Part shown: positions 7,402-7,678 of the stretch, in pieces
How positions within the stretch are numbered: position 1 is the first letter of the stretch
Layout of the letters: each line of letters starts with the position of its first letter
NCBI GenBank assembly: GCA_013203345.1
Contig: JABMQF010000011.1
Location: forward strand, 1-54,602
From: Candidatus Woesearchaeota archaeon
GTDB taxonomy: Archaea > Nanobdellota > Nanobdellia > Woesearchaeales > UBA11576
Length of the DNA stretch: 54,602 nucleotides
Direction: 5' to 3'
Notes under the pieces: generated by a model
Seen by the model: the letters and a program-made list of their open reading frames with translations, nothing else
Told to the model about the DNA's origin: nothing
Database searches by the model: none
Program-made: the position numbers and the translations under genes

Positions 7402-7678
7402 GATTCTTTGCCTTCCTGACCTAGCATGGTTTGGCTGCCTGCGCTATACCATTGCCGCGCTCGCACTATTGTGTTTTTTAATGTGTTCGCCCAACTACGT
7501 TAGGTTTTTCAGTTAAGGTCTTAGGCTCGCTAGGCGGCAACGGTGACGCAGGCAGCTTTGTTGGTGCTGAAATTGGCAAGATAGGAGAGGTGATGATAGC
7601 ACAAGCAGCTTATTTGTTATTGGTTGTGCGGGCACAGGCAACCCATTTGTTACTACAGACTGCAGATAGTGTTGACTT
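7402..7678 (+). repeat. GC-rich dispersed element, copy A (about 277 nt) with long internal imperfect palindrome
   Basis: It aligns along its length with the reverse complement of 31984-32253 and with the reverse complement of 54436-54602. Shared blocks are CTGAC.TAGCA, TGCC.CGCTCGCACT, GATGTGTTCGCCCAACT.CGTTAGGTTTTT, AGGCTCGCTAGG.GGCA and TTGGTTGTGCGGG. The arms GCTGCCTGCG...TTGCCGC (7434-7460) and GCGGCAA...CGCAGGCAGC (7533-7556) are complementary. Confidence 0.85.

Follow-up and report, generated by a model that had tools for sequence, protein, structure and literature searches.

Copies of a shared non-coding element occur three times in a 54,602-nt stretch of a Woesearchaeota contig (the window), beside polB, rad50 and an open reading frame beginning at 7733, which raises the question of whether they are mobile DNA, genes for a structured RNA, or a protein-binding module related to replication or regulation. 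All three possibilities had been put forward in a preliminary description of the locus. The family to which the elements belong is best explained, with good confidence, as a non-autonomous DNA transposon, a MITE-like foldback element in the intergenic DNA of one uncultivated Woesearchaeota clade; as part of that reading, the three copies in the window (A, B and C) are likely decayed members of a lineage-specific subfamily. The window comes from the chromosome of a Woesearchaeota (DPANN) archaeon, as the polB relatives at 60–72% identity are named Woesearchaeota or Nanoarchaeota, and as it encodes ribosomal proteins S7, S12 and L15e. A viral origin of the window was rejected, its polB having no viral relatives and ribosomal protein genes being present.

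Self-comparison of the window found the three copies exactly where they had been described (Table 1). In inverted orientation, A matches B over 57 nt at 89% and over 62 nt at 76% identity, and A matches C over 41 nt at 85% identity plus two further blocks. The near-invariant core reported previously holds in that TGTTCGCCCAACTNCGTTAGG occurs exactly in A and B (2 occurrences in the window vs 0 expected), but the first base given for it is wrong for A, which has A rather than G (AATGTG...). The motif TTGGTTGTGCGGG occurs singly in A and B and twice in C, as described, with 0.56 occurrences expected in the window, and was found in no other genome sampled. The modules are moderately GC-rich, although not as strikingly as had been suggested (51–52% vs 38.4% G+C for the window), and the GT-rich tail noted after each module is seen in all three copies. 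None contains a credible ORF: ORF 31581-32048(-), which overlaps the tail of copy B and lies antisense to rad50, is probably spurious. Neither ARAGORN nor Rfam recognised the elements, in agreement with the initial view that they are neither rRNA nor tRNA and are not recognisable as SRP RNA, RNase P RNA or 5S rRNA. The covariance model found no fourth copy within the window, and a candidate at 46425-46460 was rejected as a partial chance match only.

Each module in the window consists, in order, of a GC-rich arm of 23–27 nt, a core of 75–77 nt, a complementary arm, and a GT-rich tail with 33-nt repeats. The core opens with GCTCGC, carries GCCCAACTRCG centrally and closes with GCTCGCTAG. Core identity between A and B is 88%; the arms of the two copies are separated by five double substitutions, all of which are compensated, and the one A·C mismatch in the arms of A is a G-C pair in B. 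The tail unit of ~33 nt, which is lineage-specific, joins the 3' arm end (GCAGGCAGC) to TTGGTTGTGCGGG through a GT-rich spacer, and copy C carries 2.2 copies of it in tandem. The core of copy C lies beyond the window end, and is visible in L001, a second contig carrying an identical polB that reaches 74 nt further, as GATGTGGTTGCCCAACTGCGTTAGG in L001:1-100 (the bulk being L001:1-75). The left flank of copy A forms an imperfect outward extension of the hairpin, in which no recognisable left terminus, no target-site duplication and no match to GTATGTAATAAATC were found.

Table 1. Features of the repeat modules in the window and of the second-family modules in related loci.
Feature	Position	Strand	Basis or remark
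Copy A, whole	~7380-7687	+	shared module
Copy A left flank, common to copy B (TGAATATTT...GATTCTT...CTGACCTAGCA)	7380..7433	+	A/B alignment
Copy A 5' arm GCTGCCTGCGCTATACCATTGCCGC	7434..7458	+	gapped arm extension; DNA fold z = -2.4
Copy A conserved 75-nt core	7459..7533	+	covariance-model score 71 bits
Copy A core parts: GCTCGC; GCCCAACTACG; GCTCGCTAG	7459-7464; central; 7525-7533	+	
Copy A 3' arm GCGGCAACGGTGACGCAGGCAGC	7534..7556	+	
Copy A GT-rich tail	7557..7673	+	degenerate units of GCAGGCAGC, GT-rich spacer and TTGGTTGTGCGGG
Copy A TTGGTTGTGCGGG motif	7620-7632	+	
Copy A right terminus GACTTATTACATAC	7674..7687	+	identical to right terminus of L068 element
Copy B, whole	~31980-32276	-	shared module
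Copy B left flank, common to copy A	32221..32276	-	A/B alignment
Copy B 5' arm CCCTGCCTGTGCAATAACTGCTGCCAC	32194..32220	-	
Copy B conserved 77-nt core (GCTCGC ... GCCCAACTGCG ... GCTCGCTAG)	32117..32193	-	covariance-model score 69.8 bits
Copy B 3' arm GTGGCAGCAGTAGCACAGGCAGGG	32093..32116	-	DNA fold z = -4.0
Copy B GT-rich tail, with TTGGTTGTGCGGG at 32065-32077	31980..32092	-	ends ~10 nt after rad50 stop
Copy C, whole	54436 to window end	-	continues in contig L001
Copy C core end GCTAG (last 5 nt) and 3' arm GCGGCAACGGTGGCGCAGGCAGC	54575..54602	-	
Copy C 33-nt tandem repeats with TTGGTTGTGCGGG twice, then GT-rich tail	54436..54574	-	directly upstream of polB TATA box
Second-family modules	L004:21717-21837 and 13778-13892; also L036, L058, L088		

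None of the three public collections contains the exact window core, and the window subfamily is therefore lineage-specific. Divergent homologues were reached through syntenic polB contigs, one upstream of polB in L002 and others at two places in L004, and gave the gapped search pattern GCTCGC N24-36 AACTRC N22-34 GCTCRCWAGGYGG. This pattern is found at more than 85 loci in genome contigs, nearly all from at least eight Woesearchaeota/Nanoarchaeota MAGs, the three bacterial matches among those listed looking like chance, and in 107 metagenome stretches. A phage or virus origin of the elements was rejected, as the phage collection gave no DNA match and viral contigs contained nothing that fits the pattern. 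A covariance model (R1) made 117 matches in 635 kb of family loci, and 143 of the copies collected have distinct arms. The copy-number check proposed at the outset has been answered by pattern and covariance-model searches with more than 140 distinct copies, from these MAGs and from many metagenome contigs. GC-rich complementary arms of 9 to ~58 nt flank a core of ~75–80 nt throughout, the invariant motifs of which are GCTCGC at the 5' edge, GC(C/T)(C/G)AACTGC in the middle, and GCTCGCWAG at the 3' edge. A second family has the same GCTCGC...GCTCGCTAG bracket around another centre (CTGAGTACACCGTTAATCTGA), on a stem that does not vary (GCACCGCCAC/GTGGCGGTGC); in the CAZLYC genome its modules are usually paired, head-to-head, with one of family 1.

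The copies are mostly intergenic (85/94), show no orientation bias relative to neighbouring genes, and are patchily present among related genomes. In syntenic regions centred on polB, which form an unbiased sample, 2–4 copies per 12–22 kb are seen in each of L002 and L004, and three per 54.6 kb in the window; L005, L199 and L200 have none, and L198 a single weak, degenerate match. Copy C is cut by the contig end in both the window and L001, and module sequence lies at the start or end of many metagenome contigs, as is expected for a dispersed repeat. The CAZLYC, CAZNGE and CAZXTQ MAGs (for example L004, L002 and L075) are titled ‘uncultured Methanosarcinales archaeon’, a label that looks wrong, since their polB clusters with Woesearchaeota proteins and they contain the Woesearchaeota repeat family.

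Evidence for mobility comes from the ends of younger copies. At 13 distinct insertion sites, 9-bp direct repeats, perfect or with one mismatch, abut both termini: 12 belong to a 132-bp GGTAAAGT...CAGCACC subfamily, with ends GGTAAAGTCAAG...CTTGACAGCACC, and the other is L015, from a related subfamily of another genome. Locus L068 has a clean 190-bp element, GTATGTAATAAATC...GACTTATTACATAC, between 8-bp TTTTAACC repeats, and flanking repeats of 8–9 bp are found both at L006 and L081 and in a third subfamily (GTATTTGTTTAGC...). Target-site duplications of 8–9 bp, immediately outside the terminal inverted repeats, have been found for the young subfamilies at at least 15 distinct sites. At L082:3979-4269, a 132-bp GGTAAAGT-type element sits inside the terminus (GTATTTGTT) of a GTATTTGTTTAGC-type element, a nested insertion that gives the relative age of the two subfamilies. 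The outer termini are GGTAAAGT.../...ACTTTACC-like in some copies and GTATGTAATAAATC/GACTTATTACATAC in others; with GTATTTGTTTAGC..., at least three different kinds carry the same core. Copy A retains the right terminus only, its right end being the exact 14-nt right terminus of the duplication-flanked L068 element. Unit size is 132–310 bp, with no conserved ORF (the alignment shows indels and non-periodic conservation), and complementary arms of 5–41 nt are found in 141/143 copies with distinct arms.

Some observations sit less easily with the transposon reading. The search for duplications at the element ends, which the preliminary description had recommended, succeeded in the relatives but not at A, B and C themselves, for which no target-site duplication or intact left terminus was found, and the CAZLYC copies have short arms and no visible duplications. 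No autonomous partner was detected in ~1.5 Mb of loci, either as a multi-copy ORF or as terminal inverted repeats with a target duplication at 0.6–4 kb spacing; the window ORFs scanned include no transposase.

At L198:8900-9090, the degenerate module lies directly after the polB stop codon, with a 36-nt copy of the polB 3' end on either side. The two copies differ at 8 positions without any change in the encoded GKKQSKLGAYF*. The module was apparently brought in with a synonymously diverged polB end of foreign origin, which would imply recombination between lineages rather than simple target duplication. In other loci, cores are interrupted by small hairpin-bearing inserts, of 41–43 nt in L065:4082-4241, L010:3323-3485 and L040:3346-3508, and of ~130 nt in L032:7779-8000, suggesting a further tiny mobile palindrome landing inside the MITE.

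An alternative reading takes the modules as genes for a structured RNA, in which a long closing helix would present a conserved, pyrimidine-rich loop of ~75 nt, with transposons as the vehicle of spread and the RNA as the selected product. Covariation in this helix is strong, with 86.5% of positions paired vs 66% in shuffles and 25–55% when the arms are slid, and 171 double changes vs 57 in shuffles; the core motifs do not vary between genera, and the core has a strand-asymmetric, T-rich composition. As single-stranded DNA of either strand the module forms folds of greater stability than shuffled sequences do (z -2.4 to -4.0), whereas the whole ~280–286-nt element folded as RNA does no better than shuffles (z -0.03 and -0.6). 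An RNA helix is expected to favour G·U on its own strand. Over the 1974 aligned arm positions of the 143 copies with distinct arms, 1857 Watson-Crick pairs are accompanied by 25 G·T, 25 A·C and 67 other combinations, together with 48 bulges, and one-sided (wobble) changes are almost absent, leaving no wobble tolerance on either strand. The equal numbers of G·T and A·C point to complementarity at the DNA level, not in an RNA helix. No structure is supported inside the loop, where the sole candidate pair (29/97) pairs in 61/80 sequences and tracks subfamilies. An inner helix GC(A/T)...(T/A)GC was judged unconvincing as it too tracks subfamilies, and by eye the sequences at the arm/core junction fit neither a bulge-helix-bulge nor a K-turn. 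The Rfam search that had been proposed returned no matches over the whole window at the gathering threshold, the sole match at a relaxed threshold being a chance C/D-box (E = 6). With no conserved promoter and no set orientation relative to genes besides, a non-coding RNA family finds no support as one of the original options, and is now quite improbable.

A module kept for the host's benefit as a protein-binding site, whether for a replication or repair regulator, as an origin-like element or as a chromatin organiser, would account for the two direct GCTCGC motifs ~70 bp apart, for the partly palindromic centre (TGC N6 GCA), and for the copies upstream of polB in the same orientation in the window and L002. 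Opposing this, the module is missing upstream of polB in L004, L005, L198, L199 and L200, and the window subfamily is lineage-specific, making the two polB-upstream copies independent insertions; dozens of copies stand beside unrelated genes in any orientation, the target-site duplications show insertion and not vertical conservation, and a density of ~55 copies per Mb greatly exceeds that of origins. Such a module is accordingly considered very improbable. Wrongly duplicated sequence within the contig, through assembly, as raised initially, or through binning, was a further concern, and the ending of the contig inside copy C is in keeping with it; yet A, B and C differ from one another, as in the cores of A and B and in compensated arm changes, their flanks are unique, and the family is present in many independent assemblies, from NCBI, JGI and ENA, which refutes the concern and makes an artefact extremely unlikely. 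As terminal inverted repeats and target-site duplications were found in the relatives, a finding that the preliminary description had itself set as grounds for refutation, the more exotic readings lose, and its MITE-like option, in keeping with the high copy number, the mostly intergenic sites, the lack of orientation bias and the patchy presence, is the one that gains.

The gene context first described is accurate: copy A ends 46 nt before ORF 7733(+), polB(-) is preceded by copy C, and the rad50 stop at 31970 is followed by copy B. The apparent association with genes of replication and repair is coincidental, there being no module beside polB in most relatives, and no evidence was seen of a role for the elements in replication or repair. 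A leader or riboswitch of polB or ORF 7733 was rejected, as the TATA boxes are downstream of the elements; the polB TATA box being so placed, the element is not in the polB leader. Archaeal origins have ORB repeats around an AT-rich unwinding element, beside orc1/cdc6, and number one or a few per chromosome. A replication origin was also rejected, with three copies in 54.6 kb, dozens per genome, and arm sequences that are not conserved; Orc1/Cdc6 had no match among the window ORFs scanned. Beside the 3' end of rad50, L004 has a plain tRNA-Pro (GGG) at 22283-22356, and the window has copy B there instead of a tRNA. In L002, at 21890-22085, the same tRNA-Pro appears by eye to be split by three introns, and is not called by ARAGORN.

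Several other repeats and features were noted in the window. Two inverted copies of a ~100-nt repeat, at 18364-18462 and 21524-21625, bracket the rpS12/rpS7 region. The second copy has a central hairpin (CTCCGCACTTCAGTGCGGAG) at 21566, and the insert interrupting the L032 module carries a similar one; this may be a second repeat family common to the window and the CAZNGE genome. A 79-nt tandem repeat (2.4 copies, 85% match) at 18791-18981 is intergenic, upstream of the S7/S12 genes, and without an Rfam match. Arrays of a 13-nt repeat (GTTATTTTATTAC-like, ~4.5 copies each), iteron-like in appearance, occur ~180 nt apart at 39882-39940 and 40061-40124, at the start of a 572-aa ORF (40058-41776), and may have a regulatory or origin-like role. 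Adjacent RloB-like (PF13707) and AAA_21/AAA_15 ATPase genes at 37721-39590 (-) form a pair that we take to be typical of OLD/abortive-infection-type defence systems. Finally, a ~50-nt motif ending in ACAAAACAAAACATTTATAAA recurs upstream of several genes (10713-10763, 11807-11857, 16137-16199 and 17869-17925), and is probably a shared archaeal BRE/TATA promoter module.

The pattern of conservation in the family is the reverse of a textbook MITE, and counts against a simple version of the MITE-like reading. Conservation is highest internally, in the GCTCGC bracket and the central motif, which are invariant across genera, whereas large parts of the arms are free to vary while retaining their complementarity; among copies with 80–88% identical cores, the arms are no more alike than chance, and still complementary. 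Young copies inherit their arms faithfully, which excluded the idea that arms are made de novo at each insertion, and in the orthologous pair L026/L053 the decay in place is of the ordinary, uncompensated kind. Together these suggest that complementarity and core motifs are kept along transposing lineages and not in each resident copy. Insertion of the core, with GCTCGC duplication, into pre-existing palindromes was dismissed, neither empty GCCRC-GCTCGCWAG-GYGGC hairpins nor suitable GC-rich palindromes being found in 750 kb, as was a small core peptide, MCSPN(Y/C)VRFF, which is readable in A and B and not conserved in other genomes.

That the ~75-nt hairpin-presented core, with its GCTCGC...GCTCGCWAG bracket, works as an independent functional cassette is a rather doubtful extension of these data. 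It is prompted by the bracket being common to the second family and to at least three kinds of terminus, and being kept across genera while the arms change complementarily. The cassette might serve in cis as the site for structure-dependent transposition, by a machinery that recognises a folded DNA hairpin and not a terminal sequence, or it might be a domesticated DNA or RNA element needed by the host or by the element itself.

Returning to the MITE-like reading, a putative transposase encoded elsewhere would make staggered cuts and move the element in trans; DDE-type enzymes are the usual source of 8–9 bp duplications. Core motifs and arm complementarity would persist if only lineages keeping them stay transposition-competent, or, for the complementarity, quasi-palindrome template switching may copy changes from arm to arm. 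The 33-nt repeats and GT-rich tails could be slippage-type expansions of the segment beside the 3' arm, and the positions beside polB, rad50 and ORF 7733 would be accidents of intergenic insertion. In practice, the elements are best masked, or labelled as repeats, when Woesearchaeota MAGs are annotated, where a polB- or rad50-linked RNA or regulatory reading is a false lead; they explain contig breaks in these genomes, and are usable as lineage markers. They also indicate that DPANN archaea, with their small genomes, tolerate ~50–100 such elements per Mb, and the inverted conservation, with the centre kept and the arms co-varying, raises the testable question of what the mobilising enzyme recognises.

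Comparison with known repeat systems places the family among MITEs, with features reminiscent of others. The terminal repeats of IS6/IS26 have a GG tip with cTGTt and caaa motifs, and the duplications are of 8 bp (PMC7986276). The right end of the 132-bp subfamily, GGTGCTGTCAAG (GG..CTGT..CAA), is similar over ~12 nt only, and the duplications are of similar size; the left end, GGTAAAGTCAAG, fits less well, and the duplications are mostly 9 bp, not 8. IS6 elements are common in archaea, with no IS6 transposase found here, and this loose, sequence-level resemblance of the right end to the IS6 family is a lead, not a test. The REP/BIME systems with RAYT (HUH) transposases are alike in that structure over arm sequence seems to matter, and in having single or head-to-head units, the counterpart here being the pairing of families 1 and 2 in the CAZLYC genome. 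REPs, however, are 20–40 nt with a small loop, a GTAG head, no target-site duplication and a co-occurring RAYT gene, whereas the loop here is 75–80 nt, the duplications are 8–9 bp, and the loci showed neither a multi-copy nor an adjacent transposase ORF; membership of REP/RAYT was rejected on these grounds.

The ERIC/IRU sequences of enterobacteria resemble the family in being intergenic palindromic units of ~120–130 nt, with cross-genus conservation and compensatory stem changes. ERIC elements are generally regarded as functioning, and as being under selection, in RNA form as parts of transcripts, and have no clear target-site duplications, while the Woesearchaeota family shows no wobble bias, clear 9-bp duplications, and no sequence similarity to them. 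Closest are the prokaryotic MITEs, such as Sulfolobus SM1-SM4, the Neisseria Correia elements and those derived from IS5/IS6/IS630. One Woesearchaeal genome has been recorded in a MITE census with 105 MITEs per Mb, which are undescribed there (PMC11602168), and no description of this hairpin MITE family was found in the literature. It differs from these MITEs in that an internal ~75-nt core, and not the termini, is most conserved, the arms vary widely but remain complementary, at least three outer termini share one core, and no parent insertion sequence was found. In its small non-coding size (130–310 bp), terminal inverted repeats, 8–9 bp target-site duplications, copy number, intergenic sites, hairpin potential, patchy lineage-specific amplification, and the contig breaks at its copies, it is like them, and is a new family of an ordinary kind of selfish repeat.
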